From: Candidatus Thorarchaeota archaeon
Lineage (GTDB): Archaea; Asgardarchaeota; Thorarchaeia; Thorarchaeales; Thorarchaeaceae
Reading direction: 5' to 3'
Length of the DNA: 25,329 nucleotides
Assembly: GCA_029858305.1 (NCBI GenBank)
Contig: JAOUFI010000028.1
Location: forward strand, 1 to 25,329
Both the position numbers and the translations under genes were made by a program. The notes beneath the pieces are model-generated. The model was not told the origin of the DNA and did not search any database. It worked only from the letters and a program-made list of their open reading frames with translations. Below are positions 1,513 to 21,244 of the stretch, in pieces. Position 1 is the stretch's first letter, and every line of letters starts with the position of its first letter.

Positions 1513-1665
1513 GTAGCATCCTCCGAGTCATGCCATGCCTGAAGCTATGCTCACGCCGGAGGGCCTAGGTTCTCACGCTTAACCTTTTCCGTTTATACCA
1601 TCAAATAATTGTATTACACAAGTTGAAAATCGGAACATGTGTTCTGTGATTTGAGTCTGAGTATA

Positions 1666-1953
1666 ATGGTCTCATATCTCTATCTCTATGATTGTAGGCA
1701 TGCAAGACAAAGTAATGCGCGACGTGTGGCATTCACTAAGGAGCTCTACGGGTATACATACACTTGGAGAACAAAGTCAGAAATCAAGGAGAAACGAAAG
1801 CCAGGTCTCTTAGATGAATGTCTTGGAGCTGAAGCTGTTGCAGACTCGGCAATCATTGTTCCTGATGAATATCGAACATTGTTTGATAGCTTATTCTCAA
1901 TGTATCAAGATATTCTCAAATTCAGAGTCTATGAGATAATCAGGGAAGTATAA
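1666..1953 (+). CDS. Small hypothetical protein (95 aa), possibly Cas2/VapD-like ferredoxin fold
   Basis: ATG at 1666 preferred over GTG 1639; TTTATA at 1592-1597. N-terminal YLYLYD strand, basic helix RRVAFTKELYGY, later strand DSAIIV. Confidence 0.65.
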   Translation: MVSYLYLYDCRHARQSNARRVAFTKELYGYTYTWRTKSEIKEKRKPGLLDECLGAEAVADSAIIVPDEYRTLFDSLFSMYQDILKFRVYEIIREV

Positions 1954-2170
1954 TCACTGAGAGAAACCATAGCGGCTCTGTGTTATGAACAAAGAAACAT
2001 GAAAATTTAGATTAGAGAGATACAGAATAAGCGCAATATGCACTTCTATGAACGATCAAAAAAATAGCCATGCTATTACAGTTAACGCTTCGATATGTAT
2101 TTAGAACACGTGTTCTAGTTAGTCTAACCTCCGTACCTTTCAGGATAAGGTCTAAAGATTATCTGGATAA

Positions 2171-2193
2171 CACCCCTTCGTTTCCATTGGAAC
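2171..2193 (-). promoter_or_regulatory. ORB element (Orc1/Cdc6 origin recognition box)
   Basis: Minus strand reads GTTCCAATGGAAACGAAGGGGTG: TTCC..GGAA dyad followed by a G-string, matching the canonical ORB. Confidence 0.85.
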
Positions 2194-2316
2194 TACAAAA
2201 AATGGAGTAGTGTCCAGCGATTGATCGTATGATGATAAAAATGGAGATAAAGACCAGCTTTCGAAACAGCTATTTATACTTACCGGAATCTATACTTATA
2301 GACTATTATCTAATAT

Positions 2317-2338
2317 TTTCGAGTGGAAATGATGGGGT
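2317..2338 (+). promoter_or_regulatory. ORB element
   Basis: TTTCGAGTGGAAATGATGGGGT: dyad plus G-string. Confidence 0.75.
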
Positions 2339-2442
2339 CCTATGGGTATTAGAACACGTGTTCGAACTATTACATGTATTACAGTCTATGACAAAGGATA
2401 GAACACGTGTTCTTAATAATTTCCACGACCACAAGACTGATA

Positions 2443-2467
2443 CACCCCTCTTTATGCAACTCGAAAC
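2443..2467 (-). promoter_or_regulatory. Degenerate ORB-like element
   Basis: Minus strand reads GTTTCGAGTTGCATAAAGAGGGGTG; shares TTTCGAGT and GGGGT with the 2317 box and is inverted relative to it. Confidence 0.5.
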
Positions 2468-2493
2468 AGGCTTCAACATATGGAGGATCCTTG

Positions 2494-4386
2494 ATGGCCA
2501 AACCTCAAGAACTACTTGAAGACAATCCCGGGAAAACACTACTATTACTTGCAAATGAAGCAATAGCTCGAGGTGTATTAGAAGCTGGAGTTCGTCTAGT
2601 TGCGCTCTATCCTGGAACACCTAGTAGCGAAATTGGTAACAATTTGACAGTCATGGCACCACATATTCCTAACTTCTATTTTGAATTCAGCACAAATGAA
2701 AAGGTCGCCTTAGAAGTAGCAGGGGCTGCTGCAATTGCTGGAGTCAGATCCATGATGGTCTGCAAGGGTCCCGGTCTCAATGTAGCTGCTGATCCATTCT
2801 TCAGTCTGGCTTATGTTGGAGTCCGAGCAGGAATGATCATCATTGTCGCAGATGACCCGAGTATGTGGAGCTCACAGAATGAAAATGACAGCAGGTACTA
2901 TGCACTAATGGGAAACATGCCAATGATGGAGCCTTCAGATCCCATCGAGGCAAAATCAATGCTTCTTGAAGCATACAAGTATTCTGAGATGTTTGAGCTT
3001 CCTGTGCTCTTTAGAACAACTACTCGAGTCAATCATACCCGAGCACCTGTTACATTTGGACGAATCCCTACCCTTCCTCAAAAGGTAGAATTTGAGAAAG
3101 AACCATTCAGGTTTGTACCAATACCCTCGGTAGCAAGAACTCGACATCCATGGCTTCTCAAACAGGTTGAAAAAGCGCGGGAAGTATCTGAAACCAGCCC
3201 ACTAAACTTTACAGAGGGAGAAGGCGAACTTGGGATCATCACATGCGGAGTATCCTACAACTATGTTCGCGAATCTCTTGTCGAAATGGATATCCAGGCA
3301 GAAATCCTCAAGCTCGGGATTACACATCCCATCCCTGAGAAGAAAATTATAGCATTCCTATGTAAGCATAAGAGAGTCGTAATAGTTGAAGAGCTTGAGC
3401 CCTTCATTGAAACTCATACACGACGATTGGCTCAGCTTCATGATGTATCGGTTGAAATTCTTGGTAAGGAACAAGGATATTTCTCGAGGGTGGGAGAATA
3501 CAGTCCTCGTATCGTAATGGAAGCATTATGTCGAATTATTAATTGTAATACACCTATTAACTGGGAAGAAATTGATGATAGAGCAAGGAAAATACCTGAG
3601 ATTCCTCCGAGACCACCTCTCCTATGTGCAGGTTGTCCACATCGTGCAACATACTATGCAATCCGGGCCGCAACGAGAGGGAAGGCCATCTACCCCTCCG
3701 ATATTGGATGTTACACATTAAGTATTGCACCGCCTCTTGAAACTGCAGACATTCTTTTTGATATGGGATCATCAATAACTACTGCATGCGGTCTCTCTGA
3801 AGTCACCGACCAAGATGTGGTTGCTACAATAGGGGATAGTACATTCTTTGCCTCTGGATTACCCGGTATTGTAGATGCAGTATACAACCAACATCGAATC
3901 TGTCTAGTGGTACTAGATAACCGAACAACTGCTATGACAGGACATCAGCCTCATCCTGGTACTGGAATCACAGGCATGCAGAAAAAAGTCCAAGCATTAG
4001 ACATTGAAGAAGTATGCAAAGGCCTTGGTGTCAAGTATGTAAAGACAGTCTATCCCTTTGAATCAATAGCTGGTCTTGTAGGCGAAGTGAGAGAGATGGT
4101 CAAATGGGCAAGGGACAATCATAGTCCCGCAGTGCTTGTTTCGAAAGAACCATGTGCACTCTTGACAGCTGCGGATCGTCGTCGTGAAGGTATTGTCCTC
4201 CCCAAGTACTATGTAGAATCCGAAACCTGTAATGCATGCAAGCGTTGCCTTAATCGATTATCTTGTCCTGCTATGTACATGAATCCTGAAACTGAAAAGG
4301 CTGTCATCGATGAAACGCTATGTAATCTTTGTGGCACCTGTATTGCAGTTTGTCCCCAAGGCGCAATAAAGAGGGAGGCAGAATAA
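2494..4386 (+). CDS. iorA: Indolepyruvate:ferredoxin oxidoreductase alpha subunit
   Basis: YPGTPSSEI, NEKVALE, LCAGCPHR, SDIGCY, GDSTFF...LDNRTTAMTG (TPP-binding) and two C-terminal 4Fe-4S motifs. Start moved to ATG 2494 (GGAGG at 2482-2486). Confidence 0.96.
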   Translation: MAKPQELLEDNPGKTLLLLANEAIARGVLEAGVRLVALYPGTPSSEIGNNLTVMAPHIPNFYFEFSTNEKVALEVAGAAAIAGVRSMMVCKGPGLNVAADPFFSLAYVGVRAGMIIIVADDPSMWSSQNENDSRYYALMGNMPMMEPSDPIEAKSMLLEAYKYSEMFELPVLFRTTTRVNHTRAPVTFGRIPTLPQKVEFEKEPFRFVPIPSVARTRHPWLLKQVEKAREVSETSPLNFTEGEGELGIITCGVSYNYVRESLVEMDIQAEILKLGITHPIPEKKIIAFLCKHKRVVIVEELEPFIETHTRRLAQLHDVSVEILGKEQGYFSRVGEYSPRIVMEALCRIINCNTPINWEEIDDRARKIPEIPPRPPLLCAGCPHRATYYAIRAATRGKAIYPSDIGCYTLSIAPPLETADILFDMGSSITTACGLSEVTDQDVVATIGDSTFFASGLPGIVDAVYNQHRICLVVLDNRTTAMTGHQPHPGTGITGMQKKVQALDIEEVCKGLGVKYVKTVYPFESIAGLVGEVREMVKWARDNHSPAVLVSKEPCALLTAADRRREGIVLPKYYVESETCNACKRCLNRLSCPAMYMNPETEKAVIDETLCNLCGTCIAVCPQGAIKREAE

Positions 4387-5001
4387 ATGGTTCGTAATAA
4401 CAGTAATACAATAAGTATTGCAATATCTGGAGTTGGTGGGCAGGGTGTTCTAACCCTTGCAGAGATACTTGCAAAAACCGCCTTAGCTGAGGGGCTCAAT
4501 GTAAGAGTAGGTGAGATCCATGGGATGGCTCAGCGTGGTGGTCATGTGGTGTGTACAATCAGAATCGGTGATGGAGCAAAGGGTCCAGTCATAGATGCTG
4601 GTACTGCAGATTTGCTCGTAGGGTTTGAACCAGTGGAAACCTTGAGAGAAATTCACTTGATAAAAAAGAATGGCTGTGTAGTGATGAGCTCTCATGTTCA
4701 ATATCCCGTTGCTGTTTCTATGGGCCAGGCTGAGTATCCCACACATGAATCGATTCTTCGATCAATCGGTGAATTCACAGACCGTGTAATAGAATTTGAT
4801 GCAATGGATATTGCTTTGAAATCAGGAAGTTCTTATGCTCTGAACATGGTCATGTTTGGTGCAATTCTCGGAACCGGACTTGTACCTATAAGTAAGGATT
4901 CTGCACTACGTGCAATTCGTGAATCATTTCCTAAACGGTTTGAAAAGATTAACATCGATGCAGCAGAAACTGGTTTCAGTACAGTCAAATCATGTCTTTA
5001 A
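4387..5001 (+). CDS. iorB: Indolepyruvate:ferredoxin oxidoreductase beta subunit
   Basis: GVGGQGV and EIHGMAQRGG motifs; abuts iorA. Confidence 0.95.
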   Translation: MVRNNSNTISIAISGVGGQGVLTLAEILAKTALAEGLNVRVGEIHGMAQRGGHVVCTIRIGDGAKGPVIDAGTADLLVGFEPVETLREIHLIKKNGCVVMSSHVQYPVAVSMGQAEYPTHESILRSIGEFTDRVIEFDAMDIALKSGSSYALNMVMFGAILGTGLVPISKDSALRAIRESFPKRFEKINIDAAETGFSTVKSCL

Positions 5002-5023
5002 TACTAGTATTATTTGTATTACA
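4997..5023. repeat. 9-bp tandem triplet (TGTAWTACA family)
   Basis: TTTAATACT AGTATTATT TGTATTACA at the convergent iorB/hypF junction. Confidence 0.8.
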
Positions 5024-7400
5024 TTACTTCATTGATGATTCTGGCTGCTACTGTTGCTACTTGACCTACTGAGATCCCTCCATCGCCAGGGGGAATCAAG
5101 GAATGGAACACAGGGACTAGATTATATTTCTGAATTTGATTTTCAATCGCGGATGTTACAATACGATTGAGCGCAACACCCCCAGAGAATCCTATATACA
5201 GTATCTCTTCCTCCAATGCTAAATCACAAGCGATTCTCGCAAGACTTTCACCAAGATGCCACTGAGCTGCATAGGCCAATTCCACTCTACTTGTACCCTT
5301 GTCCTTCATATCAAGTATCTCTTCTAGAGAATGAGTTGTATCTAAGACTAGTCCATAATCCGATTTGACAAACTCAGAGTCAATTCGAATATCAGTACGA
5401 CGGGCAATAGCTTCGAGCTTCATTGGGCACTCACCATCGTAGGTATTCTCAGAGCATACTCCAAGTGCAAGTGCCACTGCATCAAGAAATCTACCAGCAC
5501 TCGTACTCTTTATTATATTCACACTTTGTTTTCTTGCATGAAGTAAAACATCCAAAACTTTCCCAGAAACCTTCGTGTCTGGAGCAATTGAAGATGATCC
5601 CAAGAGCTGAAGGAGCCTTTTCTTTTCTATACTATTTCCAATTATTCCTATTAGCGATCTAGCCGCATAGATAGCTGATAAATCTCCGCCAGTATATTCC
5701 TGTGCTTTCAAACCCCCTCTTCGGACTGAATCGCTATAATTTCCCACAAGAATCTCTCCGCCCCATGCATTCTTATCTAATCCATAGCCGAATCCGTCTG
5801 CTGTAATACAAATAATACGGCTATCATACGGTATCAATCCGTCAACCATTATTGCAGCCAAATGTGCATGATGGTGCTGTATACGATAAAGTGGAATCTC
5901 ATACTCAGTAGCCATTTTTTCTGCGAAATCTGTGCTCAAAAACTCTGGATGCAAATCGCATGAAACAGCATCTAGTTTCTTGATGTCTAATAGATGCAGC
6001 ATATGATCAATCGCATTTGAAAGGAAATCGATGTTCTCAATCTGATTAGTGTCTCCAATATGTTGTGTCATGTAAATTCGGCCAGACTTTGAAACTGAGC
6101 CAGTTGCCTTTTCCTCAGGACCCACTCCTACTATCTTTAGTGCTCTCCATGGACCATTGAAGAGAATTGGTTCTGGTACATAACCCCTTGCACGTCTGAT
6201 GAATACTGGATTTGTTTTATCTATGAGCTTGACCACCGAGTCATCAGCCCGTTGATGTATTCTTCTATTATGCACCAGGAAATAATCAACGATATCTCGC
6301 AGTTCATTCATGATAATTTCAGGTTCGATATACATTGGCATTCCTGTCGGGTTAGCGCTTGTTAGAACTAGGGCTGGTTCGTTGGTATGTCTGAAGAGAA
6401 GATGATGTATCGGCGCATAGGGTAGCATAACACCAATACTGTCTAGTCCTGGAGCTATAGATTCCAAGGACTCGATTGGTATTACTGGTAATACATTATT
6501 CTGTTTCTTCAGACTTGTAATTGTCTTCGTGACCAGTACAATTGGTCTTCTCCAAGATGTGAGTATCTTCTCTTCAAGCTCATTGATATTACTCAGATGT
6601 TTTAGTGTTGAAAGATCTCGAACCATAATTGCAAAGGGACGATGAGACCTCTTCTTTCGCAATCTGAGTGTTTCTATTGGTTCATGATCACTGGTCTTCG
6701 TAGCAATGTGGGTTCCTGAAATTCCTTGAAGTGCTACAATGGCTCCCTCATCAATTAGCTGTGCTGTTTTTTCAATCGGATTTGTATTTGCTATCGTTGT
6801 ACCTCTGCTGTCTACTACATGATAGACAGGACCACAATTATGACAAGCCGTTGTCTGTGCGTGATATCTACGGTCAGTTGGATTTGTATAACCTGTATTA
6901 CAAGTATCACATAACGGGAAGTCGAGCATTGTGGTATTGGGTCTATCATATGGTAAATCTGTAATAGTTGAAAATCTAGGTCCACAAGCGGCACATGATG
7001 TAAATGGGTAAAGATACCAACGTGAGTTCTCATGCATCAAATCATTTACACAATCCTTGCAGATTGCAATATCAGGTGGCAATACAGGAATTGCATCTTC
7101 ATTTCGAATTGTTGAAGATTTATGGATTTGAAATTCTTTGAACTCCTCTTGAGAGTCAGTCCACTCTAAATCTAGTGTATCAATCCGCGAAATTGAGGGT
7201 GAATCGTTTCTAATACTCTGAACCAATTTTTGAATATGTGTTTCTTCACCCTCCACAGTAACCTCAACGCCTGCATCACCGAGGTTTAATACATAACCTA
7301 AAAGCGACAAGGATTTCGCAACACGATAAACAAAAGGTCTGAATCCTACTCCTTGGACTATTCCAGTCACATGAATGGTCGCTCTCTTGTTCGCCATCAT
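5019..7400 (-). CDS. hypF: Hydrogenase maturation carbamoyltransferase HypF
   Basis: Acylphosphatase GIVQGVGFRPF, zinc fingers (CGPRF, DRRYHAQ), YrdC-like domain, QHHHAH and PPGDGGISVGQ. Confidence 0.97.
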   Translation of the reverse strand: MMANKRATIHVTGIVQGVGFRPFVYRVAKSLSLLGYVLNLGDAGVEVTVEGEETHIQKLVQSIRNDSPSISRIDTLDLEWTDSQEEFKEFQIHKSSTIRNEDAIPVLPPDIAICKDCVNDLMHENSRWYLYPFTSCAACGPRFSTITDLPYDRPNTTMLDFPLCDTCNTGYTNPTDRRYHAQTTACHNCGPVYHVVDSRGTTIANTNPIEKTAQLIDEGAIVALQGISGTHIATKTSDHEPIETLRLRKKRSHRPFAIMVRDLSTLKHLSNINELEEKILTSWRRPIVLVTKTITSLKKQNNVLPVIPIESLESIAPGLDSIGVMLPYAPIHHLLFRHTNEPALVLTSANPTGMPMYIEPEIIMNELRDIVDYFLVHNRRIHQRADDSVVKLIDKTNPVFIRRARGYVPEPILFNGPWRALKIVGVGPEEKATGSVSKSGRIYMTQHIGDTNQIENIDFLSNAIDHMLHLLDIKKLDAVSCDLHPEFLSTDFAEKMATEYEIPLYRIQHHHAHLAAIMVDGLIPYDSRIICITADGFGYGLDKNAWGGEILVGNYSDSVRRGGLKAQEYTGGDLSAIYAARSLIGIIGNSIEKKRLLQLLGSSSIAPDTKVSGKVLDVLLHARKQSVNIIKSTSAGRFLDAVALALGVCSENTYDGECPMKLEAIARRTDIRIDSEFVKSDYGLVLDTTHSLEEILDMKDKGTSRVELAYAAQWHLGESLARIACDLALEEEILYIGFSGGVALNRIVTSAIENQIQKYNLVPVFHSLIPPGDGGISVGQVATVAARIINEVM
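6885..6911. repeat. 9-bp tandem triplet inside hypF
   Basis: TGTATAACC TGTATTACA AGTATCACA; the last 18 bp are identical to 7994-8011. Confidence 0.75.
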
Positions 7401-7565
7401 TACTCATTTTGAATCTGGAATTCAAACTAGATATTAATCCAGTGAATTGACAATATTGTGAATTGGTTTTACAGAGTTCTTCGATGTATTACATATATCA
7501 CCATGTTTCAGAGAATTTCATATAGGTCCTCTTAAGGTAGTGTAAGAACTAGTAATCGATTAGCC

Positions 7566-7979
7566 TTGACACCTAATACGCATATATCATCAGTAGCTCA
7601 AGATCCTGAGCCCACTACCTCAGTCCTGGCTGCAATACCAGACTGTCTAAAAAGCACACTTATTGACTGTGCAAATAGTGAAGCGAAATCAAGGAAATCA
7701 ACACTTATCTCAAGCAACAACCTTACCAACCGGTTCATATTATCTAGGTGGGGGATTAGACCATCTCAACGGAGGAGATACAAGAATCTATTCGCTTCGA
7801 TTCGAAAACACTGTCGTGTTTTATTCCAGCATTACCTTCTACGAGGAAGGATAGAATGGATTGATAATTCAGGTCGGCATGTTTTCGGCGTATTCAAGTT
7901 TGATGAAGTTCGAGGCAATCTTATTCTCGGTTTTGTAGAGATGACTCCCGAGTCAGAATGGACCTTATCTCATCGCTAA
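7566..7979 (+). CDS. Hypothetical basic protein, possibly winged-helix DNA-binding
   Basis: 137-aa ORF (TTG start) with three predicted helices, an Arg/Lys-rich stretch (SQRRRYKNLFASIRKH) and C-terminal beta strands. Confidence 0.65.
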   Translation: MTPNTHISSVAQDPEPTTSVLAAIPDCLKSTLIDCANSEAKSRKSTLISSNNLTNRFILSRWGIRPSQRRRYKNLFASIRKHCRVLFQHYLLRGRIEWIDNSGRHVFGVFKFDEVRGNLILGFVEMTPESEWTLSHR

Positions 7980-7984
7980 GCACC

Positions 7985-8011
7985 TGTAATTCTTGTATTA
8001 CAAGTATCACA
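7985..8011. repeat. 9-bp tandem triplet
   Basis: TGTAATTCT TGTATTACA AGTATCACA, just after the stop codon at 7979. Confidence 0.85.
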
Positions 8012-8169
8012 ATTCTAATGGTGATGTTTAAGAGGACTAGCTAATGTATACGATTTTGTATCCGCACAGAGCAACAGAAACATCCTGTGAACAAAAGGTG
8101 TGAAAATGTCCTAAAAGGCCATTTTGAGGCGTTTTAGTACACTCGTACATATAATGATGATGGAGAAAC

Positions 8170-8718
8170 ATGGCTATGAATGAGAAACGAGATACGCAAT
8201 CAAATCGAAAAATAATGAAAGAACTGACATTGGGAGCTAGACAAGTATTACAAGAACCAATTCTTAAGATACTACAGAATGGTTCAGTTCTTAGCCAAAC
8301 ACAGCTTGAAACACTCTTAATTGATCTTGTTATCGAAGATAACTATGGGGCACATATCACGTATGAAGACAAAGCATCAATTCGTTCTCGTGCTGGGGCT
8401 AAGACAAAGGGTGTATCCAGAGGTGCCTTCAACAGAACACTCAAGCAAGCCAGAAGAAATGTTACTCGATGTTTCTATACGATGCTACTTCTTACGTATC
8501 TTGGATTATTTGAATTAACAATATTTCGTCCTTTTGAAGAGGTTGCTGCACGTATAGGTGACTATAGAAGAATACGTGAAATTCTTGCAGGGAAATCTGA
8601 GTTGACTCAAGAAGATCTAGAAAGCGTCAAAGTAACAGAACGTACAATCGTATCCCTTCTAGAAGACCTCTCATTGTCACTTGCTCTGAAAACAGATATC
8701 TCTCGTAAAAGGCAATAG
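8170..8718 (+). CDS. Conserved archaeal hypothetical protein with HTH (HTH_10/Tfx-like) pattern
   Basis: LSQTQLETL...ITYEDKASIR...VSRGAFNRTLKQARRN parallels the LTxRQ...ISRSTFxxHLxxAxxK pattern of HTH_10 domains. Confidence 0.7.
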   Translation: MAMNEKRDTQSNRKIMKELTLGARQVLQEPILKILQNGSVLSQTQLETLLIDLVIEDNYGAHITYEDKASIRSRAGAKTKGVSRGAFNRTLKQARRNVTRCFYTMLLLTYLGLFELTIFRPFEEVAARIGDYRRIREILAGKSELTQEDLESVKVTERTIVSLLEDLSLSLALKTDISRKRQ

Positions 8719-9068
8719 ATAGTTTCTTGAAGAATTTTGTCGATAATCAAAGTTCAAAAAAGAAATGGCTCGAGCGTGCCGCACATAGAAGCGGGACCAA
8801 TGAGTGGAGTCACCATCAACACTTGTGCATTCAAGCTACTAGTTGAGTCATCCTGGAAGTTTTGAGGAGATAGAGATGACACTGAAAGTGCCTGAGATGT
8901 CAAAGAGACCGTGATCCAATGACATCAGTCTATCTTCTATTATTACGACACACTCATACATACACTCACAACAATTATACATAGTTCTAATCATAGAACG
9001 GCAAGTTTTTTCCTAATACAGGTTTCTCCGTTCCCAGAAATCTGAATTTACTCCTTTCCTAATATCTC

Positions 9069-9095
9069 TATAATACTTGTAATACAAGCAATACA
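9069..9095. repeat. 9-bp tandem triplet
   Basis: TATAATACT TGTAATACA AGCAATACA, intergenic. Confidence 0.85.
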
Positions 9096-9177
9096 GTGGC
9101 TCCTATGAGAATAATACACTTAATCATATATTGGTGCCTTTGCTATTTTTAGAAAGCAACAATCATGAGGTCCTCTA

Positions 9178-10419
9178 TTGGCAGAAGATGACAATCGGGC
9201 AAAAATTCTGAAAGCTGTCAAGGACCATGTAAGGCAGTCAGAAGAACAACAACGTGTGCAAATGATTGCTGATGCAATCGGCGAACGAAGAGATCGTGAC
9301 CTGCTCGATATAATATCTTCAATCGAGCAAGATAGAGGATGGCCAGAAACATTACAGCATTTGCAGAAAGCTCAGAACTTCAGTTATTCTCTTCCTGTTG
9401 GCACTGGACCGCTTAAAATTAAAGTTGAAGACTTAAAATTTCGAGAGATGCTCTTCTCTGTTTTAGGGTGTCGCGGGTTAGAACCTATTCCAGTAAATAC
9501 TGAAGAAATCTTGACCCAGATGAAGGACGAGCGTTCGATAGTAGATGCCTCTGATTCAATACGTAAGTATATCGAATCAATTGCACGCAGTCAGATTGAA
9601 ACTGGTGATTCTTTGTTTTTTGATTCAAATGACTTTGACATCCAAGTTTCAGAAGATATAACTCAAATAATCGAACAGCTGAAGCATAAAGAGGTTCAAG
9701 GAATAACTCTGGAACAGAAAGATGATAATATCAATATCGCTCCGCTCTGGTACTGTGAAACCGGACGACAGATATTATCGAGTTATGGAATCAAGGGATT
9801 CATCATTGGCGCAAAACAGTTAGAAGAAGTATTATCTGTAATACAATTTCCTGTAGTCGTCAATAATGTCAATCAATATACAGTACAGCAAAAACAATCA
9901 GACTATCCCTCAAATAAATCGTACCGTGATCTGCATAACTCCATCATTAATCATGATGATGAGAGATTATCTTTACTTTCAAGCAGACATTCATTTTCTA
10001 CACTGAAATCGATGTTGGAGGAAACACTTGATGTATATAACAAAGATTCTTCAAGTGAGAATTACAGGCAGTTTCTTCATCTCATTCACCTTCATGTCAA
10101 AGTTCGAACGCTGGATTCAATACAATTGTTTGAAAGATTGGCATATCTTAAAGATAGAAGAATAGCGACAGTAGCAATTACTGCACTTGGTAATTATTAC
10201 CATGAATCAGCGGCTATTGCTCTGGTAGAGATACTTTGTAAAAGTAAGAATCGCGAGATTGTTAAGACAGCAACAAATGCTATTCTGAATGTAGGAAAAA
10301 GAAGTCCTGAAACTGTTTCAGTGATTGCAACAGCTCTTGAATCATCGACCTGTACATACAAAGGACGATTGAACCGACTTTGGAGAGAATTCGGGAAGAA
10401 AAATCAATTGTATTACTAG
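9178..10419 (+). CDS. Hypothetical protein with C-terminal HEAT-like repeats
   Basis: 413-aa ORF, GAGGT upstream of TTG; IATVAITALGN and IVKTATNAILN resemble HEAT repeats. Confidence 0.75.
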   Translation: MAEDDNRAKILKAVKDHVRQSEEQQRVQMIADAIGERRDRDLLDIISSIEQDRGWPETLQHLQKAQNFSYSLPVGTGPLKIKVEDLKFREMLFSVLGCRGLEPIPVNTEEILTQMKDERSIVDASDSIRKYIESIARSQIETGDSLFFDSNDFDIQVSEDITQIIEQLKHKEVQGITLEQKDDNINIAPLWYCETGRQILSSYGIKGFIIGAKQLEEVLSVIQFPVVVNNVNQYTVQQKQSDYPSNKSYRDLHNSIINHDDERLSLLSSRHSFSTLKSMLEETLDVYNKDSSSENYRQFLHLIHLHVKVRTLDSIQLFERLAYLKDRRIATVAITALGNYYHESAAIALVEILCKSKNREIVKTATNAILNVGKRSPETVSVIATALESSTCTYKGRLNRLWREFGKKNQLYY

Positions 10420-10435
10420 TACTACATGTATTCAG
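10409..10435. repeat. 9-bp tandem triplet
   Basis: TGTATTACT AGTACTACA TGTATTCAG, spanning the stop codon. Confidence 0.8.
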
Positions 10436-10480
10436 ACTAACACGACAGACATAAAACGAATTCTTCTCTCGCGTCAGACT

Positions 10481-11872
10481 ATGCCAAAGTCACAGGTCGA
10501 ATTATATCAGAGCATTGATTCCTTCTTCAATCCAACGAAAGTCGCTTTGGTAGGTGCATCTGCAGATTATAGAAAATTAGGTAATTCAATACTAATGAAT
10601 CTCCTGAGCTCCGAGGTTGAGGTTTTTCCCGTAACTCATAGTAAAGAAAAAGTCCTAGGTGTGAGAGCATATCCAAGTCTTGCAGATTTACCAGAACCTG
10701 TTGATTTAGTTATTGTTGCAGTAGCCGCTAAATATTGTCCAGCCTTGATGTCAGAAATTCATAATGCCGGTGCTAGAAATGCAGTAATCATCTCTGGAGG
10801 CTTTAGTGAAATTGGACCTGAAGGCGCTGAGATAGAAAACACTCTAATCAGAGCTGCTAAAGATGCAGAGGTACGATTTATCGGACCCAATTGCGTTGGT
10901 ATATCTAATAGTCGTCTTTTCAATGGTACTTTCACCATGATGCCTGAACGGGGTAACATTGCTTTCATTTCTCAAAGCGGTGCACTTGGTGGTATGAGTA
11001 TCTATACAACTAGAGCTAAAAGAATTGGAATGAGCAAATTCGCTAGTATCGGTAATTCAGCTGATGTGGGATTCGTTGAAATCTTAGACTATTTCAGACA
11101 GGATCCAAAATCAACTGTGATTGCTGCATACATTGAAGGAATCAGTAATGGAATAGAGTTATTCGAATCACTACGGAGAACAGCACACGAAAAACCAGTT
11201 GTAATACTAAAAGGAGGAAAAAGTGAGGCTGGAAGTCGTGCCACACAGTCACATACTGGATCACTTGCCGGATCAGCTCAGATATTTAACGGTATGATTA
11301 AACAAGCTGGATGTGTAACAGCTCCTACACTTGACACATTATTCGAAATCTGCAAGTTATTTGACTATCAACCACTTCCAGGAGGTTGTAATATTGGTAT
11401 TATTAGTAATACAGGAGGAGCTGGAGTCTTAGCAACTGATGCCGCGTCAGAGCTTGGTTTGAAAATTGCTATCCTCGAAGAAGAAACGCGACACGAACTT
11501 CGACAAATACTCCCACCTATGGCTTCAGTAAATAATCCCGTAGATGTTGTTGCAAGTGGAGGGAGAAGGGAGTACCGTATCGCAACAGAACTTCTTCTCA
11601 AGGATTCAAACGTAGACATGCTACTTGTTATCTGCGGAGTACCAACATTCGCTGGCATGACACAGACAGAACACGCAGCTGGAACTCTCGAAGCTGTTCG
11701 AATGACTGTTACAAGTAAACCTGTTGTCGGGGTTTGGTTGGCTGGAGACGTTGGTAGACCTGGAAAGGATTTGCTGGAAATGAATAGAATCCCATGTTTT
11801 GATGATCCTTTCATTGCAGCACTTTGTATGGCACGAGTGGCTGAGTATACTAGGCTTCATCAACAATTGTGA
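10481..11872 (+). CDS. acdA: ADP-forming acetate/acyl-CoA ligase alpha subunit
   Basis: CoA-binding domain (VGAS, GPNCVG), SQSGA, phospho-His motif SHTGSLAG, NPVD. Confidence 0.92.
   Translation: MPKSQVELYQSIDSFFNPTKVALVGASADYRKLGNSILMNLLSSEVEVFPVTHSKEKVLGVRAYPSLADLPEPVDLVIVAVAAKYCPALMSEIHNAGARNAVIISGGFSEIGPEGAEIENTLIRAAKDAEVRFIGPNCVGISNSRLFNGTFTMMPERGNIAFISQSGALGGMSIYTTRAKRIGMSKFASIGNSADVGFVEILDYFRQDPKSTVIAAYIEGISNGIELFESLRRTAHEKPVVILKGGKSEAGSRATQSHTGSLAGSAQIFNGMIKQAGCVTAPTLDTLFEICKLFDYQPLPGGCNIGIISNTGGAGVLATDAASELGLKIAILEEETRHELRQILPPMASVNNPVDVVASGGRREYRIATELLLKDSNVDMLLVICGVPTFAGMTQTEHAAGTLEAVRMTVTSKPVVGVWLAGDVGRPGKDLLEMNRIPCFDDPFIAALCMARVAEYTRLHQQL
11387..11413. repeat. 9-bp tandem triplet inside acdA
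   Basis: TGTAATATT GGTATTATT AGTAATACA. Confidence 0.7.
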
Positions 11873-11882
11873 TAACTCAGTC

Positions 11883-11907
11883 GGAATACTGTAATACTAA
11901 TATTACA
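11883..11907. repeat. Repeat cluster immediately downstream of the RHH gene
   Basis: GGAATAC TGTAATACT AATATTACA in the convergent gap. Confidence 0.8.
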
Positions 11908-11918
11908 ATCATTTCATT

Positions 11919-12227
11919 TTAAGATTGTTCGAGATACTCTTCTGCTATCTGAGGAAACTGTTGTGCAATGGCCTCACGAAGTTGCTGCTCTACCCACATG
12001 CTCAGATTGATTGCTTTTGTTTTCCGGATAGCCTTAAGACAAGCTCGAAGATCGGTGGGGATGGAGAATGATACAATCGGGCTCTTTCGATCTCTGTTCG
12101 GTACTGCAGAGATAAGCTCAACAGTTTTCATAGGACTACTCGATGATTCCTTTGGAACTGATCGCGTAGTTTGACTTTCATCGTCCTTTTCTGCTTCTTC
12201 ACGTCTATATTTTCCAAGTAGACTCAT
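11919..12227 (-). CDS. Ribbon-helix-helix DNA-binding protein with a charged, probably disordered N-terminal arm (ParG/SegB-like architecture), 102 aa
   Basis: ATG 12227 with GGAGG upstream, 1 bp after the ATPase stop. PIVSFSIPTDLRACLKAIRKTKAINLSMWVEQQLREAI fits the RHH strand-helix-helix pattern. Confidence 0.82.
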   Translation of the reverse strand: MSLLGKYRREEAEKDDESQTTRSVPKESSSSPMKTVELISAVPNRDRKSPIVSFSIPTDLRACLKAIRKTKAINLSMWVEQQLREAIAQQFPQIAEEYLEQS

Positions 12228-12228
12228 A

Positions 12229-13209
12229 TCATTGAACCTCCTTGAGTATAGTTGCATAAGCTTCAGAAACAAGCTCTGCAATTTCTCTATTCACTGTCGG
12301 ATCATTATTCTTGCGAAGAATCTCAGCAGCAACCTGCTGACATCCTCGTGCTAGCATCCTGATGTCGCGTGGATTTCCATTGGCTGCGGTATTAATTACA
12401 GTAATTGCGTCATCAGTGAACGGATAGATATCAAAATTCTCTGGATCAAAACTGTCGATGCGTCCTTGGGCATAAGAAATTCTACGTCCTATGAACTCTC
12501 TTGCTTTTGCATTATTTAACGCAGGCACATCGAGAGGTTCTGTTCTATCTGCAATTTGTGGCAAAAATGATAGCATTGCATTCCAGTAAATCATTGTTCC
12601 AGACATCACTAAGGTGACAATAGGTTCATCAAGAGCCCTCGTTTTTCCATAGGCATCAATCATCTCTTCAGTGGGTAAATCTGCGAGAAAGCGAAGTTTA
12701 TGAAATGCAGCTTCCTGGTTGTCTGCAACATCTTCTATGAAAAGAGCTGTGCGGCTCTGCTCCTCGACATACCTTCTGAGACTTTCTTTTGCAACAGCAT
12801 CAATAATTTGGCTGGACTCCCATGATCGCTTATACTTGACCCTAAGAGAATCGGCAATGGCTGCTGCCATTTGCTTCTCATAGAGTCCAGTCATACCTAC
12901 ATAACCTGTAACAAATTTGTTTCCTCTTCGATCCGCCAGTGTAGGCAGGTCTCTCAATGCTAGAAGCATCAATGTACTCTTACCTGATCCCACAGGCCCT
13001 CGAATGAAAACATGTCGTTCATTGGTTATAATTAGATCAACGATAGAATCCAAGAAGTTACTATCTTCTATGTATAAACGACTGTCAGGCATCTTGAAGC
13101 CGCGAAACGGTGAGAATCTAGCTCCAATTCTTTCCTCCCATGCTCGTAAGACCTCTTTTCGAGTATTGAAGTGCCGAATCAGTGCGCTCTCATGAATAGC
13201 AATCGTCAT
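12229..13209 (-). CDS. AAA+ ATPase, ExeA/TniB/TnsC-like, 326 aa
   Basis: Start at ATG 13209 (GAGGT upstream). Walker A GPVGSGKST, Walker B variant LFIED, sensor-1 region LVMSGT, Arg finger QIADR, lid PFTDDAI...GNPRDI. Confidence 0.85.
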   Translation of the reverse strand: MTIAIHESALIRHFNTRKEVLRAWEERIGARFSPFRGFKMPDSRLYIEDSNFLDSIVDLIITNERHVFIRGPVGSGKSTLMLLALRDLPTLADRRGNKFVTGYVGMTGLYEKQMAAAIADSLRVKYKRSWESSQIIDAVAKESLRRYVEEQSRTALFIEDVADNQEAAFHKLRFLADLPTEEMIDAYGKTRALDEPIVTLVMSGTMIYWNAMLSFLPQIADRTEPLDVPALNNAKAREFIGRRISYAQGRIDSFDPENFDIYPFTDDAITVINTAANGNPRDIRMLARGCQQVAAEILRKNNDPTVNREIAELVSEAYATILKEVQ

Positions 13210-13237
13210 CGTTTGGACCTCTAGTATCTGGAACTTT

Positions 13238-13293
13238 CGTATCACATGTAGTTCATGTAATACAATTTTCAAGAGATGGTTACAGATATAAAA
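13238..13293 (-). promoter_or_regulatory. Predicted promoter of the ATPase-RHH operon with a 9-bp triplet operator
   Basis: Minus-strand TTTTATAT at 13286-13293; CGTATCACA TGTAGTTCA TGTAATACA at 13238-13264 covers the expected transcription start. Confidence 0.7.
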
Positions 13294-13425
13294 TGTGTGG
13301 TAAAAGCTCCAGAATTCCATGTGTCTAGTGTGAGTGATGCGCAACCTTTTTGAACAGAACGAAAGGGTTTGTAGGCTGACCAGCATGTTGGTCATAAGTC
13401 CTTGTTAGGAGATATCTGATCTGAG

Positions 13426-13704
13426 ATGGACGTTGAACGGATTAAGCACATCATGAATTCCCTAATGATATTATCATTCCTCATTTTCGGAGGTCTAATT
13501 GCAATCATGATCATCGGTGATGTTAGTTTGAATAATGCAACGGTATCCCTTCCATTTGCATTCATGTTCATCTCTATTATAACGCTCATAACTACAGGTC
13601 AAATAAACGAAAGACCGAAATTAGCCCAGAAATATCTAAGAGATTGGCTAATTATCTGTACAATCGGAATCGTCATTAGTGCCCTAGTGTTTACATTTTA
13701 TTGA
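13426..13704 (+). CDS. Small membrane protein (about 3 TM helices)
   Basis: Three hydrophobic segments in 92 aa; AGGAG upstream. Confidence 0.8.
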   Translation: MDVERIKHIMNSLMILSFLIFGGLIAIMIIGDVSLNNATVSLPFAFMFISIITLITTGQINERPKLAQKYLRDWLIICTIGIVISALVFTFY

Positions 13705-13738
13705 AAGAACTGAATCATTGGACTTTGGAGTGAAATAA

Positions 13739-14374: not shown

Positions 14375-14385
14375 AACACAACTAT

Positions 14386-14411
14386 TGTATTATTGTATTA
14401 CTGTTATTACA
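14386..14411. repeat. Repeat cluster after atpD
   Basis: TGTATTAT TGTATTACT GTTATTACA; same layout as 11883-11907, and both end TATTACAATC. Confidence 0.85.
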
Positions 14412-14494
14412 ATCTCACTAGGTTGAGTTCCTAGACAATACCAGCGATAGGTAGAGAAGTTCTTACTCGGAAAAAGAAAGCTGTAAGATTGGAA

Positions 14495-15202
14495 TCAAAG
14501 GGTTCCAATATATGTTAAGGTCACATTCAGTAGTGCGCTGAACATGCAACTAGGATAGTTCACGTAGAATCTGGCTACAAGCGGAACTCCGGTATCAAAG
14601 GCTGTCCATCCCTCCCATATGTATGTGGCGACATTCGGAAATATTGAAAGCAACTTTCTAGACCCAAAATACATACTCTCATTCAGTCTGAAACTTGCAC
14701 AATGAGTTACTGACCCAGATCTATCAACATCGGGAGCAGCAATCACTGGAAACTCGTCAAGAAAGAACCTGTCAATCAAAGTCCAATCACCCAGTGGTAA
14801 GATTGATTGAGAAAGAGGTTTTCCAATGTTAGTAGCAAATTCGTTAGGAAATTCGTCAGGAAGCTCAGTTCCGTTTGAGAAACGACAAGATATCTTGTAC
14901 ATTTCTACTACCTGGGACTGAAATGTAGAGCTTGATACCAATCCTGCTACATTGGGTAATTCAACAATTTGGACAATCAGCTGTTCACCATCAAGACTGA
15001 GATAATTGGAGTAGGTGTATCCATAATTTGAATTAGATTCATCATGTGAAACGTTTACGGAGTAAAGAATTTCATCTCCCACTGAAACTCCCCAGTAGAA
15101 AGGAGATTCGAAAGTTCCAACTAGAGAGAAAGCTAGAATACTAACAGAACCAATCAGTATCACAACAAGGACTAATGCCATTAATCGGCGTTGTCTTTGC
15201 AT
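14495..15202 (-). CDS. Hypothetical secreted or membrane-anchored protein
   Basis: N-terminal RQRR plus hydrophobic signal/anchor, followed by a beta-rich domain (WGVSVGDEILYSV). Confidence 0.75.
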   Translation of the reverse strand: MQRQRRLMALVLVVILIGSVSILAFSLVGTFESPFYWGVSVGDEILYSVNVSHDESNSNYGYTYSNYLSLDGEQLIVQIVELPNVAGLVSSSTFQSQVVEMYKISCRFSNGTELPDEFPNEFATNIGKPLSQSILPLGDWTLIDRFFLDEFPVIAAPDVDRSGSVTHCASFRLNESMYFGSRKLLSIFPNVATYIWEGWTAFDTGVPLVARFYVNYPSCMFSALLNVTLTYIGTL

Positions 15203-15341
15203 AATTCACACGCCCTATACTATGTTGTAGATGAATCTAAGCAATTAGAGCTTCTTATTGAAGCTATTCTTAGAATATGAAAAGGATTGATCAATACTGC
15301 TTGTGAGTCTTCTGAGAATCATCAAACGATGAGAATCTGGC

Positions 15342-15366
15342 TGTATATTGTATTAATGTTATTGCA
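15342..15366. repeat. Degenerate repeat cluster downstream of nac
   Basis: TGTATAT TGTATTAAT GTTATTGCA, similar to 14394-14411. Confidence 0.6.
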
Positions 15367-15375
15367 TCATATAGC

Positions 15376-15771
15376 TCAATGCCGCAGCTTCAATATTGCA
15401 GCTGCCAAGTCACCTTCAGTTTCTATCAGCACCTTTTTCGCAGTTTCAATATCAACACCAGTTTGACCTGCAACAAGTGCAGCATCCTCAATTGGAATCT
15501 CAATCTTTTTCTCAGGAGCTGGTTTCTCAGCTGCTACAGATGTTTCCGTTGGCTGTTTTCCTGAACGTAAACGTTCTGTTTTCGAACCTGCGACTTGATA
15601 TGTTTCTGTATTTGCTTGTTTTACCATAGTGACTTGGGGATTTGAAATAACCCATTCTTTGTCCGCGAAACGGATTATTACTTCTTTAACGCCATCTAGA
15701 TCCTTCTGCTCGATTCCCATCTTTCTCATCATTCGTTCCATCTGTTTCGGAGACATTCCTCGAAATCCCAT
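15376..15771 (-). CDS. nac: Nascent polypeptide-associated complex protein
   Basis: PKQMERMMRKMGI...VKEVII NAC domain and C-terminal UBA-like domain (GDLAAAILKL). Confidence 0.95.
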   Translation of the reverse strand: MGFRGMSPKQMERMMRKMGIEQKDLDGVKEVIIRFADKEWVISNPQVTMVKQANTETYQVAGSKTERLRSGKQPTETSVAAEKPAPEKKIEIPIEDAALVAGQTGVDIETAKKVLIETEGDLAAAILKLRH

Positions 15772-15874
15772 AACATCACATCTGTTGTAAGACTAGAGCA
15801 GTAGAACAATAATCATTATCCTGCTACCTGTATGCTGCCTTTCTTCTATAGATAAAATGATTACGCTTGTGAAA

Positions 15875-16711
15875 TTAGACAGACTCAACAGAGATATCGA
15901 ATACCACATGACTAATCCCTGGTGAATAGTTCTTAATCTTTCGTACTTCTATTTCTGGCACAAACTCATGCTTTCTGCAGATATCTGTAATACATGTAAT
16001 ATTTTCCTCTATTGTTTTTTCTGAAACAGCCTTATGCATGTGAATTATACCTCCCTCTTTTATCAATGTTTCAAGAGCATACGGCAGAAATGTTTCAGTG
16101 TCGTGCAAGTATCCCATAATGACACGGCTGGCAACATGAGTTGGATGAACAATTCTACAGTTTCCTAGTACCGCAGTGACTTTGTCTTCTAATTCATTCA
16201 TCTCAATATTCTCTACAAGAAATTCATATGCTTCTGGATTGATTTCAATAGCGATGACATTAACATCATTCCTTTTTGCGATATGCAGTGCAAATTGACC
16301 TACGCATGCAAACATGTCTACAACGCACTCTCCTAGTTTAATGCGTCTAGACATACCAATTCTTTCTCCTTTGTTTCCTCCCGAAAAAGTCATTCGAACA
16401 GGGTCAAACTTGAAACGAACCTTGTTCTCAACATGCAAAGTTACAGTATCTTTACTTCCTGCTACTACTTCATAAAAGGGCCTACGCTCAATTCCCTTAG
16501 TTGGTCCGGTTTTGACTGCTACGGATTTTAATCTATGATCGTAGTCAAGCGTTGCTTTTCCTATAGTCGTAACATACTCCATAAGTTCAGGATTCAGATG
16601 TAGTAGGGCAACATGTCCTACGACGTGAAATCCTGAAGGTAAAGCCAAATTCTGTGGTATTGAGTCCTTCAAACGAGCTCGGAGGAATTCTCTGTATTTC
16701 ATATACCTCAC
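15875..16711 (-). CDS. Trm5/Taw2 (Met-10+ like) tRNA-modifying SAM-dependent transferase
   Basis: HVENKVRFKFD, FSGGNKGER, VDMFACVGQF, EINPEAY, KIKNYSPG. Start may be ATG 16702. Confidence 0.9.
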   Translation of the reverse strand: MRYMKYREFLRARLKDSIPQNLALPSGFHVVGHVALLHLNPELMEYVTTIGKATLDYDHRLKSVAVKTGPTKGIERRPFYEVVAGSKDTVTLHVENKVRFKFDPVRMTFSGGNKGERIGMSRRIKLGECVVDMFACVGQFALHIAKRNDVNVIAIEINPEAYEFLVENIEMNELEDKVTAVLGNCRIVHPTHVASRVIMGYLHDTETFLPYALETLIKEGGIIHMHKAVSEKTIEENITCITDICRKHEFVPEIEVRKIKNYSPGISHVVFDISVESV

Positions 16712-20931: not shown

Positions 20932-21041
20932 GGGCCGCTAGTCTAGCCCGGCTATGATGTCTCGTTTACACCGAGAATCCAAACGAGTTATTTACTCATT
21001 GGAATCGAAGGTCGCTGGTTCAAATCCGGCGCGGCCCACCA
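20932..21041 (+). tRNA. tRNA-Val(UAC) with a 32-nt insertion (probable non-canonical intron) 3' of the anticodon stem
   Basis: Acceptor GGGCCGC/GCGGCCC-A-CCA; anticodon arm TCTCG-TTTACAC-CGAGA; T arm GCTGG-TTCAAAT-CCGGC. Confidence 0.92.
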
Positions 21042-21126: not shown

Positions 21127-21244
21127 GCGGGAGTAGCCAAGCCCGGTCAAAGGCGGCGGACTTAAGATCGTCTAAACAAAGGGGTCACGATAAGATATCC
21201 GCTCTCGTAGGAGTTCGTGGGTTCGAACCCCACCTCCCGCACCA
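21127..21244 (+). tRNA. tRNA-Leu(UAA) with a canonical 37/38 intron (21167-21196)
   Basis: Acceptor GCGGGAG/CTCCCGC-A-CCA; GCGGA-CTTAAG|A-TCCGC; perfect BHB (CTTA/TAAG helix with two 3-nt bulges); long variable arm. Confidence 0.96.

Follow-up and report, generated by a model that had tools for sequence, protein, structure and literature searches.

We found that a 25,329-nucleotide stretch of DNA from Candidatus Thorarchaeota archaeon (contig JAOUFI010000028.1 of NCBI GenBank assembly GCA_029858305.1; hereafter the window) carries a field of phased arrays of the 9-bp palindrome TGTAWTACA (W being A or T), laid out around the operon of a P-loop ATPase and a small protein that is predicted to be of the ribbon-helix-helix (RHH) type. 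As far as sequence comparison can tell, this field is almost certainly a selected protein-binding array. As for its role, we see about an even chance that the 14-kb field is a centromere-like or origin-organising device, i.e. a nucleoprotein domain that would flank a replication origin and be bound by the RHH protein.

A field of phased palindromes confined to one locus

The palindromic unit considered throughout is the 9-mer TGTAWTACA, with the core GTAWTAC and the general form NGTAWTACN. The window is an entire contig (C176) of the source assembly (G000; 3.04 Mb in 205 contigs), and it was compared with other genomes, given as G-numbers, of the family of the source organism (f1), of its sister family (f2) and of further families. 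Twenty-two f1 loci were available; where the position of the field is counted, the tally covers the 21 besides the window, namely 6 same-genus loci on long contigs and 15 loci from other genera.

An earlier reading of the bare sequence (the original prediction) had listed 13 exact copies of the 9-mer, and all of them are present at precisely the starts it gave, against a mean of 0.20 in dinucleotide shuffles (maximum 2; none of 100 shuffles reached 13). Its estimate of about 21 GTAWTAC cores before 16.0 kb and about 3 in the last 9 kb was also accurate: we counted 21 and 3, or 24 in the whole window, where shuffles average 1.94. The field comprises about 20 arrays of 2-3 units each, one every 0.4-1.6 kb, for a total of about 14 kb. 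Besides the gene ends, convergent gaps and interiors of open reading frames (ORFs) that had been noticed at the outset, the arrays also occupy divergent gaps; nine of them are intragenic and three lie in convergent gaps.

The 9-bp autocorrelation that had been predicted was found both in the window and family-wide. Beside the 13 exact sites, the match to the 9-mer averages 5.15 positions at -9 and 4.85 at +9, with a background of 2.77, and a neighbouring unit matching at least 6 of 9 positions is found for 7 of the 13 at -9 and for 7 at +9 (background 2.4%). Among the offsets from -30 to +30, the only signal besides +/-9 is a weak one at -18. The degenerate neighbours pointed out earlier at 4997, 7985, 9069, 10409 and 13238 proved to be units matching 7-8 of 9 positions. 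Across the family, 396 in-field cores have a unit matching at least 5 of 7 positions at -9 in 57% of cases, at +9 in 50% and at +/-18 in 17-18%, with at most 4% at the 16 other listed offsets between 7 and 28 bp. A general repeat finder, run independently of the motif, returned the 27-nt three-unit arrays as its largest family (D1).

The original prediction had also expected a single genome-wide peak, and this is what we observed. The whole source assembly contains 17 exact copies, 13 of which are in the window contig, and a scan for phased unit pairs gave about 19 array loci in this contig and only weak background pairs in the remaining 3.02 Mb. In G261, a relative assembled as a single contig (2.58 Mb), a stretch of 13 kb surrounding the orthologue of the ATPase gene contains 7 of the 8 exact copies. 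In phylum relatives from other families (G022, G023, G025 and G030) the copies are scattered, in numbers close to those of a reversed-pattern control; the closed genome G030, which has no match to the ATPase, holds 5 scattered copies. G046, a single-contig relative without the ATPase, was set aside as a natural control because HypF and the HEAT-repeat gene are missing too and the whole region is absent.

Conservation, selection at the DNA level and even spacing

The field occupies the interval from about -10.7 to +3 kb relative to the ATPase gene in 6/6 loci of the genus and in 15/15 loci from other genera of the family. It is thus held in place across 16 genera whose GC content ranges from 37 to 53%, and the flanks of 14-30 kb are at background. 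In the GC-rich genomes of the family the 7-bp core stays and the outer positions drift to CGTAWTACG.

Intragenic sites are under selection at the DNA level. The array inside hypF at 5802..5819 reads TGT ATT ACA on the gene strand (Cys-Ile-Thr); GTATTAC is retained in 21/22 genomes with its synonymous positions fixed, and none of the other 7-nt windows of this gene, 2418 in all, is as well conserved (rank 0). The same holds for the array inside acs, the gene of an ADP-forming acyl-CoA synthetase (11387..11413; GTAATAC in 21/22 genomes, rank 0 of 1395), and for the one inside the HEAT-repeat gene (9828..9845; same column in 14/18 genomes), which is the top-conserved 7-nt window of 1266 (rank 0) in a gene whose protein is merely 26-64% identical across the family. 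A three-unit array of repeat family D1 within hypF (6885..6911) keeps its central core in 17/22 genomes (rank 3 of 2418). Conservation is lower at other sites: the exact unit inside iorA (3544..3552) has GTAWTAC at the same codon-alignment column in 12/17 genomes, the array at the iorB start (4393..4410; units matching 6/9 and 8/9) is at the same column in 10/21, and the two-unit array in the variable linker of hypF (6478..6495) in 6-8 of 22. At the proximal end of the field, the two-unit array near the 3' end of trm5/tyw2 (15986..16003) is found at the same column in 3/20 genomes and within 30 nt in 10/20. A unit at 11200 is kept in just 1 of 22.

The arrays are also evenly spaced. The 20 arrays of the source genome lie on average 756 bp apart with a coefficient of variation of 0.46, and none of 5000 simulations was as even. 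In all 22 f1 loci the coefficient is 0.35-0.62, compared with about 1 for random placement (P < 0.05 in each, the genomes being related and the trials not independent). Chance, base composition or a functionless repeat element could in principle produce a cluster of short palindromes. We give this explanation practically no credence: none of the 100 shuffles reaches the observed count, the position is kept over 16 genera at 37-53% GC, synonymous sites are fixed, and it is this conservation of the field that refutes an artefact.

The ATPase-RHH operon and the candidate binder

The P-loop ATPase gene (12229..13209, minus strand, 326 amino acids; start confirmed by alignment A1) precedes the gene of the RHH-like candidate binder (11919..12227, minus strand, 102 amino acids; alignment A2 of 21 sequences). 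Since the ATPase stop overlaps the start region of the RHH gene, the two form an operon. The ATPase has a classical Walker A motif, GPVGSGKST, and obtains only weak AAA_22, AAA_16 and pepcterm_ATPase matches from Pfam and NCBIfam, with PDB matches limited to the P-loop. It is single-copy in 66 of 72 genomes of the class that are at least 80% complete, and its identity (86-97% within the genus, 77-85% in other genera of the family) is above that of IorA, ACS and HypF from the same loci. A profile search of 1.84 billion representative proteins returned just 30 at E <= 0.001, the remote ones being AAA_22, TniB or STAND-like.

The 102-residue protein starts with MSLLGKYRxE, in which LGKYR is invariant, followed by a charged, variable linker of low complexity and a conserved C-terminal domain with a strand-helix-turn-helix pattern (IVSFSIP..DLRxCLxAIR..AINLSMWVE). 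Its homologues bear Thorarchaeota names only; it belongs to no Pfam family and has no paralogue in the source genome. Matches below threshold on residues 50-90 are all to RHH proteins: YlcI_YnfO_N (E 0.0025), an Arc-like phrog (0.038), a CopG-like phrog (0.056) and ORF56 copy control (0.095). Its protein-language-model neighbours, which we take as leads only, include an Antitox_RHH and a ParG cluster, the latter with a score of 0.94. Apart from one spurious hit, no solved chain in the PDB matched the RHH profile A2 at E <= 10 (the presence of SegB chains in the copy searched was unchecked), and a domain-family scan of the window proteins found no ParB-type domain.

We consider it likely that this local RHH protein binds the arrays, based on how motif and gene travel together. 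The RHH gene is the sole gene of DNA-binding type that always accompanies the motif. Upstream of the ATPase start, a GTAWTAC unit is found at 30-50 bp in f1 and f27 and at about 100 bp in f2; in f1 it is present in all loci, at +970 to +1030 from the ATPase reference. In the window, the unit upstream of the operon belongs to a three-unit array (13238..13264, i.e. 29-55 bp from the ATPase start codon), which is a probable autoregulatory operator. The original prediction that the field should track the ATPase-RHH pair held for all 21 other f1 loci and for 3/3 loci of f27, a family of 29% GC in which the ATPase is about 43% identical, the same gene pair is present and 10-11 cores occur within 4-6 kb; it did not hold for the pair of the sister family, which is taken up below.

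Family f19 offers a comparison in which the partner differs. In G107 another small protein takes the place downstream of the ATPase (hhalign probability 0.06 against the Thorarchaeia RHH protein; weak Arc-domain match, E 0.053), and hhalign found no homology between the latter and the partner protein of f19 or f7. The f19 field (L142-L143, G107:C1:1636680-1644561) is built of (A)GATATC(A) units in direct arrays phased at 13 bp. The 40 kb inspected contain 38 GATATC copies, of which 27 are packed into 8 kb, from Orc1 to just past the ATPase operon. Since f19 has another partner and a GATATC field while the ATPase, ORF104 and ORF182 are orthologous across f1, f19 and related lineages, the motif changes where the small partner protein changes.

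Two further observations concern the DNA upstream of the ATPase in these families. The f19 field includes a 2.3-kb non-coding gap directly upstream of the ATPase gene. In f7, a 372-bp gap upstream of the ATPase (L144-L145, G024:C1:941388-941760) holds three GTAWTAC cores, where about 0.05 would be expected, together with GATATC units and a GAACACGTGTTC palindrome, so that both kinds of unit co-occur there.

A candidate replication origin at the distal edge of the field

In two genera, a switch in strand composition coincides with the distal end of the field. Over the 440 kb of G060 that were examined, the AT skew of the top strand is +0.08 over 220 kb on one side and -0.08 over 210 kb on the other. 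The switch does not depend on gene orientation: the skew drops from 0.155 to -0.024 in plus-strand genes and from 0.014 to -0.138 in those of the minus strand. Its change-point is located in the gap that separates iorA from an AlaDH-like gene, which corresponds to positions 1513-2406 of the window, i.e. to the distal field edge. In G078, from a second genus (391 kb), it falls at the same gene boundary, the AT skew passing from +0.05 to -0.04, and in both genomes the genes diverge from the switch over 60-80 kb. On the top strand, the left side of the switch is rich in G and A and the right side in C and T. G024 shows a switch of the same sign at its Orc1/ATPase locus, and so does G020 as regards GC skew. 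Among 53 contigs of the source genome of at least 15 kb, the AT and GC skews that remain after gene orientation is removed covary (rho 0.65), and because the two residual skews go together, one strand is purine-rich.

Known archaeal origins are compact units of origin recognition boxes (ORB) and a DNA unwinding element that adjoin orc1. In f1, 5 of 6 genomes have an Orc1/Cdc6 gene at a distance of about 33-35 kb from the ATPase gene, which places it about 24 kb past the field edge (in G058 it is on another contig), and a second one is 70-166 kb away in G060, G078, G041 and G003 and 1 Mb away in G261. The skew switch is 10 kb from the ATPase operon, as opposed to 24 kb from the nearest Orc1/Cdc6 gene. 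In other families the Orc1/Cdc6 gene is found 4.2 kb (f19), 2.6 and 2.7 kb (two genera of f7), 2.8 kb (f3), 8.8 kb (f2) and about 10 kb (f27, 3/3 loci) from the ATPase homologue. By tblastn, a cluster of the order Orc1/Cdc6, ORF104, AAA_22 ATPase, small protein, ORF182 and HypF is conserved in several Asgard families (window 5019-13209, L142-L148). From gene order, this cluster appears to be pulled apart in f1 by the insertion of iorAB, ORF137, the HEAT-repeat gene and acs.

The candidate replication origin zone (1513..2406) contains ORF104, four GAACAYRTGTTC palindromes and two TGTAWTACA arrays. ORF104 (1639-1953, plus strand) encodes a conserved small protein without a Pfam family, present at 23/23 loci of the class. 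Its homologues are 40-44% identical and lie 0.4-6 kb from the ATPase operon, in the Orc1/Cdc6-proximal region of f19, f7 and f3. The first of the two arrays is the distal one and has a single exact unit (1610..1618), located where the AlaDH-like gene and ORF104 diverge, 22 bp from a GAACATGTGTTC palindrome, a pairing that recurs in most family loci. The second consists of two units, ACTATTACA TGTATTACA (2366..2383), and is placed 24 bp upstream of iorA.

The GAACAYRTGTTC palindromes (1633-1644, 2104-2115, 2352-2363 and 2401-2412; 0.3 expected) flank ORF104 and stand upstream of iorA. The source genome has 12 copies, 4 clustered here and 8 single on other contigs. A cluster of 2-5, mostly 3-4, is found at the switch in 21/21 other family loci, and the same palindrome occurs beside ORF104 in f19 and f7. 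They may be an origin-recognition element or the operator of a regulator, perhaps of ORF104 itself. We did not retain them as proven ORB elements, given that the palindrome also occurs singly on eight other contigs and may have no other role than that of an operator, for ORF104 or a different regulator.

Because ORF104 and the GAACAYRTGTTC palindromes sit at the switch in f1 and adjoin the operon elsewhere, the f1 field spans the DNA between the end marked by ORF104 and the ATPase operon. Taken together with the position of Orc1/Cdc6 genes, we lean towards placing the field on the origin side of the replication landscape. The accessible parts of two earlier studies report skew-based replication modes for other Asgard classes only (PMC11291895, PMC9246712).

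The same evidence raises the question of whether the pair and its field are part of origin function as such, acting in licensing, timing or sequestration or as a third initiator-like system, with the ATPase recruited along the flank. The closeness of the ATPase homologue to the best-scoring Orc1/Cdc6 gene in f19, f7 and f3 (2.6-4.2 kb), the recurrence of the cluster across families and the switch being nearer to the operon than to Orc1/Cdc6 all speak for such replication control, as does a match of the ATPase to the orc1/cdc6 model TIGR02928 at E 0.004. This match reaches 16 bits, with a cut-off of 181, and hhalign against nine Orc1/Cdc6 proteins of these genomes gave a 46% probability over 35 columns of the P-loop only; on both grounds we rejected the ATPase as an Orc1/Cdc6 protein. 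Domain-family scans of the ATPase found neither a winged-helix domain nor a helicase-loader signature, and a one-sided, evenly spaced field of 14 kb is unlike the compact origins of archaea. We therefore regard replication control as unlikely.

Comparison with known systems

By analogy, the field would work most like SegB/segS and like origin-proximal clusters of parS, and its DNA recognition would resemble that of aCcr1, ParG, omega and MetJ. As neither the NTPase nor the binder belongs to the ParABS or SegAB families, the system is not a member of either. With both it shares the clustering of sites around the operon, here 13 of 17 genome copies within 14 kb.

As would be the case for the field, the chromosomal ParABS systems of bacteria have several palindromic sites grouped near the origin, in the vicinity of the binder and NTPase genes, and some of these sites are intragenic. 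In contrast, ParB is a helix-turn-helix CTPase clamp and ParA a deviant-Walker ATPase, neither type being found in the window, and parS is a single 16-bp site rather than a phased array of 9-bp units. ParG/ParF, omega/delta and MetJ rely on small RHH dimers that bind tandem short repeats cooperatively with a period of 7-8 bp, and in ParG and omega a flexible N-terminal tail stimulates the partner ATPase. These type Ib and MetJ systems differ from the field in that each has, on a plasmid or at a promoter, just one compact array of about 50-200 bp and, for the former, a ParA-like partner; no homology of the Thorarchaeia protein to the ParG, omega or MetJ type was detectable with hidden Markov models.

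SegAB is closer in several respects. In the accessible parts of its descriptions, SegB consists of a conserved N-terminal part and a C-terminal RHH domain, joined by a variable, disordered middle. The short palindromes that it binds are for the most part intragenic and reach their highest density around its own operon, with the NTPase next door (PMC12284271, PMC12139799). The differences are that SegA is of the ParA type, whereas the partner here is an AAA_22-type P-loop protein, and that the SegB motif, as given there, is the 13-bp TCTAGA-S-TCTAGA with 32-49 sites chromosome-wide, whereas 9-bp phased units within 14 kb are seen here. The same parts of these papers survey SegB in Thermoproteota and Euryarchaeota and mention no Asgard homologue (PMC12284271, PMC12139799).

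The motif itself is closest to that of aCcr1, a Sulfolobales and viral RHH regulator of the cell cycle which, according to the portions available, binds a 9-bp palindromic box in electrophoretic mobility shift assays and chromatin immunoprecipitation sequencing (PMC9976878, PMC9976892). The aCcr1-box is given as A(T/G)G(A)TA(G)A(T/G)TACN or AGTATTA and resembles the older ccr-2 box TGTATTAT (PMC9976878, PMC9976892). On paper, the core of this box is the same as that of NGTAWTACN, which speaks for an RHH protein as the binder of the field. In an hhalign comparison with A2, the 59-residue RHH ORF of SIRV2 (ORF59b) gave E 0.0022 and a probability of 13%, with 31 columns in register (IITFKIP against IVSFSIP); judged by its length of 59 residues, ORF59b is probably the gp21 of the aCcr1 work. 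From these alignments, membership of the Thorarchaeia protein in the aCcr1 family is unproven. As far as those portions describe it, aCcr1 is a stand-alone protein of 58-59 residues, whereas the Thorarchaeia protein has 102, with an N-terminal peptide and a linker, and shares its operon with an ATPase; the boxes of aCcr1 occur singly or in twos close to promoters and are dispersed, whereas those of the field form phased arrays, half of them intragenic, in one block.

Proposed mechanism and competing explanations

From the above we infer the identity of the binder, its cooperative binding, the contact between RHH protein and ATPase, and the cellular role as follows. The field would be the chromosomal landing pad of one sequence-specific DNA-binding protein, extending from the probable origin to just past the ATPase-RHH operon. 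Dimers of the RHH protein encoded within the field would each contact a 9-bp palindrome by placing their beta-ribbon in its major groove, and binding would be cooperative between neighbours at the 9-bp spacing, as with MetJ, omega and ParG on tandem repeats. The array just upstream would autoregulate the ATPase-RHH operon. The N-terminal peptide, carried on its flexible linker, may contact, recruit or regulate the co-transcribed AAA_22-type ATPase. In this way the evenly spaced arrays would build a single large origin-proximal nucleoprotein domain, which could serve as a handle or organiser of the origin region in the segregation, positioning or compaction of newly replicated origins. The parS/centromere-like or origin-organising role put forward in the original prediction fits in that the field flanks a probable origin, and departs from what we found in that the ATPase is not a partition ATPase of the ParA type.

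Several results weigh against a centromere-like or origin-organising device. On the protein side, Pfam and NCBIfam assign no ParA/CbiA family to the ATPase, which is thus not ParA-like and has no known partition role, and its alignment with Orc1/Cdc6 proteins does not extend beyond the P-loop. The RHH fold of the 102-residue protein is predicted from matches below threshold (E 0.0025-0.1). In the sister family (f2, G019) the pair is present with only 2 exact sites and no field, and a de novo k-mer search of G019 found no altered motif. On the replication side, the switch is a maximum of both cumulative GC and cumulative AT skew, and such a maximum would denote a terminus under the GC-skew convention used for bacteria; G261, sampled sparsely, revealed no skew structure; the local AT-skew difference is near zero in 15/21 family loci; and the local GC-skew difference, seen in 20/21 loci, may reflect shared orthologous genes. 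Among the contigs of the source genome, residual skew did not correlate with gene strand, and the candidate origin zone contains no marked AT-rich unwinding element. The source genome also encodes 3-4 other small RHH ORFs of the CdrS/aCcr1 type (...YPNRSEAIRIAIRDLL...), closer overall to the viral protein (C34 54510-54650; C166 37960-38091; C180 22836-22976; C205 199466-199528). Judging from their sequence, these could be cell-cycle regulators and are possible rival binders of the box. Finally, because half of the arrays are in promoter-bearing gaps, a role in transcription has to be reckoned with.

The last two points lead to a local transcription or silencing domain, in which the boxes would be operators of an aCcr1/CdrS-like RHH cell-cycle regulator encoded locally or at a distance. 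In addition to these ORFs, such a domain is suggested by the identity of the motif with the published aCcr1-box/ccr-2 box core and by the arrays that stand just 5' of start codons, as at 2366 (iorA), 9069 (HEAT-repeat gene) and 13238 (ATPase), about half of all arrays being intergenic. However, 13 of the 17 copies are gathered in a single 14-kb block, unlike the dispersed promoter boxes of aCcr1. Nine arrays are intragenic and three lie in convergent gaps, which have no promoters; the intragenic sites surpass all other DNA of their genes in conservation; the genes covered are functionally unrelated and the spacing is regular; and the motif switches with the local partner protein. Considering all this, we find a transcription domain quite unlikely.

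The skew maximum could also be taken at face value. Replication would then end at the switch, and the field would be a domain that handles forks or resembles MatP/matS. MatP is indeed an RHH-type protein that binds dispersed palindromes confined to one domain by a replication landmark. It differs from the present system in that matS comprises 23 single 13-bp sites over 800 kb at the terminus, with no ATPase partner, and the evidence here favours the origin side: in six other families Orc1/Cdc6 genes cluster beside the homologue of the operon, the Orc1 locus of G024 and G020 has a switch of matching sign, and the genes diverge from the switch in G060 and G078. Moreover, the arrays of the window do not share one polarity, 8 being left-weighted, 7 right-weighted and 4 symmetric, which makes a polar fork trap unlikely and led us to discard it. 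A terminus-side domain thus seems improbable to us. The reading of the field as an origin-proximal, RHH-bound domain is the one we prefer.

Remaining arrays and neighbouring genes

The arrays not described so far complete the field from its distal to its proximal end. Three units occupy the convergent gap between iorB and hypF (4997..5023), followed by an array in the divergent gap between hypF and ORF137 (7485..7502), three units between ORF137 and ORF182 (7985..8011) and three units upstream of the HEAT-repeat gene (9069..9095). Another array is found at the stop of the latter gene, upstream of acs (10409..10435). Two-unit arrays lie in the convergent gap between acs and the RHH gene (11890..11907) and in the convergent gap after atpD (14394..14411). 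An outlying pair of units, matching 9/9 and 6/9, is located in a methyltransferase gene 4.8 kb beyond the field (20786..20803).

The genes of the window include those of NAC, TFE-alpha, PAN, aMBF1, GatD/GatE, A/V-ATPase subunit D, Trm5/Tyw2, HypF, IorAB and the ADP-forming acyl-CoA synthetase. Those under the field are archaeal housekeeping and metabolic genes of functions unrelated to one another. A mobile element or a contig from a foreign organism was ruled out by these core archaeal housekeeping genes and their conserved synteny. The window is chromosomal DNA, and the names attached to homologues of its genes point to Thorarchaeota, an Asgard lineage. A conserved gene of a 92-residue membrane protein (13426-13704, plus strand) precedes the lone gene of A/V-ATPase subunit D; a 65-residue ORF on the opposite strand upstream of the ATPase (13392-13589, minus strand), considered as an RHH gene, is likely spurious given that the conserved gene there is that of the membrane protein. 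Inside the field, a 235-residue ORF with an N-terminal membrane anchor (14495-15202, minus strand) is absent from 22 other loci and constitutes a genome-specific insertion. Two tRNA matches of 107 and 115 nt (20932-21038 and 21127-21241, both plus strand; Rfam, 46-47 bits) were not called by ARAGORN and probably carry introns.

Implications

Within the literature outside subscription journals and supplements, we found no Asgard description of the element, the gene pair or the cluster, and the field is possibly a new kind of machine. More speculatively, and with the balance tilted somewhat against it, several Asgard lineages may have an undescribed origin-associated machine composed of an RHH-type adaptor and a non-ParA AAA_22-type ATPase beside Orc1/Cdc6. 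This machine would act on lineage-specific phased palindrome arrays (GTAWTAC with 9-bp phasing in Thorarchaeia and f27, GATATC with 13-bp phasing in f19) and in Thorarchaeia the array would have grown into an evenly spaced 14-kb field that marks the origin and serves to organise or segregate it.

The finding supplies a set of parts, namely a 9-bp box and the architecture of its arrays, a candidate binder, a conserved partner ATPase, an Orc1-linked cluster and a candidate origin position. No cultured organism is needed to work on these parts, since synthetic genes can be used in vitro and read-depth profiles in silico. The cumulative-skew maximum at Orc1-linked loci (G060:C2, G078:C43 and G024:C1) also calls into question the bacterial GC-skew convention for Asgard genomes.

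If the more speculative reading is true, ParABS and SegAB would be joined by a third kind of prokaryotic centromere system, and the class would gain its first mapped origin landmark. Should the ATPase prove to be a non-ParA motor of partition or origin organisation, the known range of such machines would broaden.

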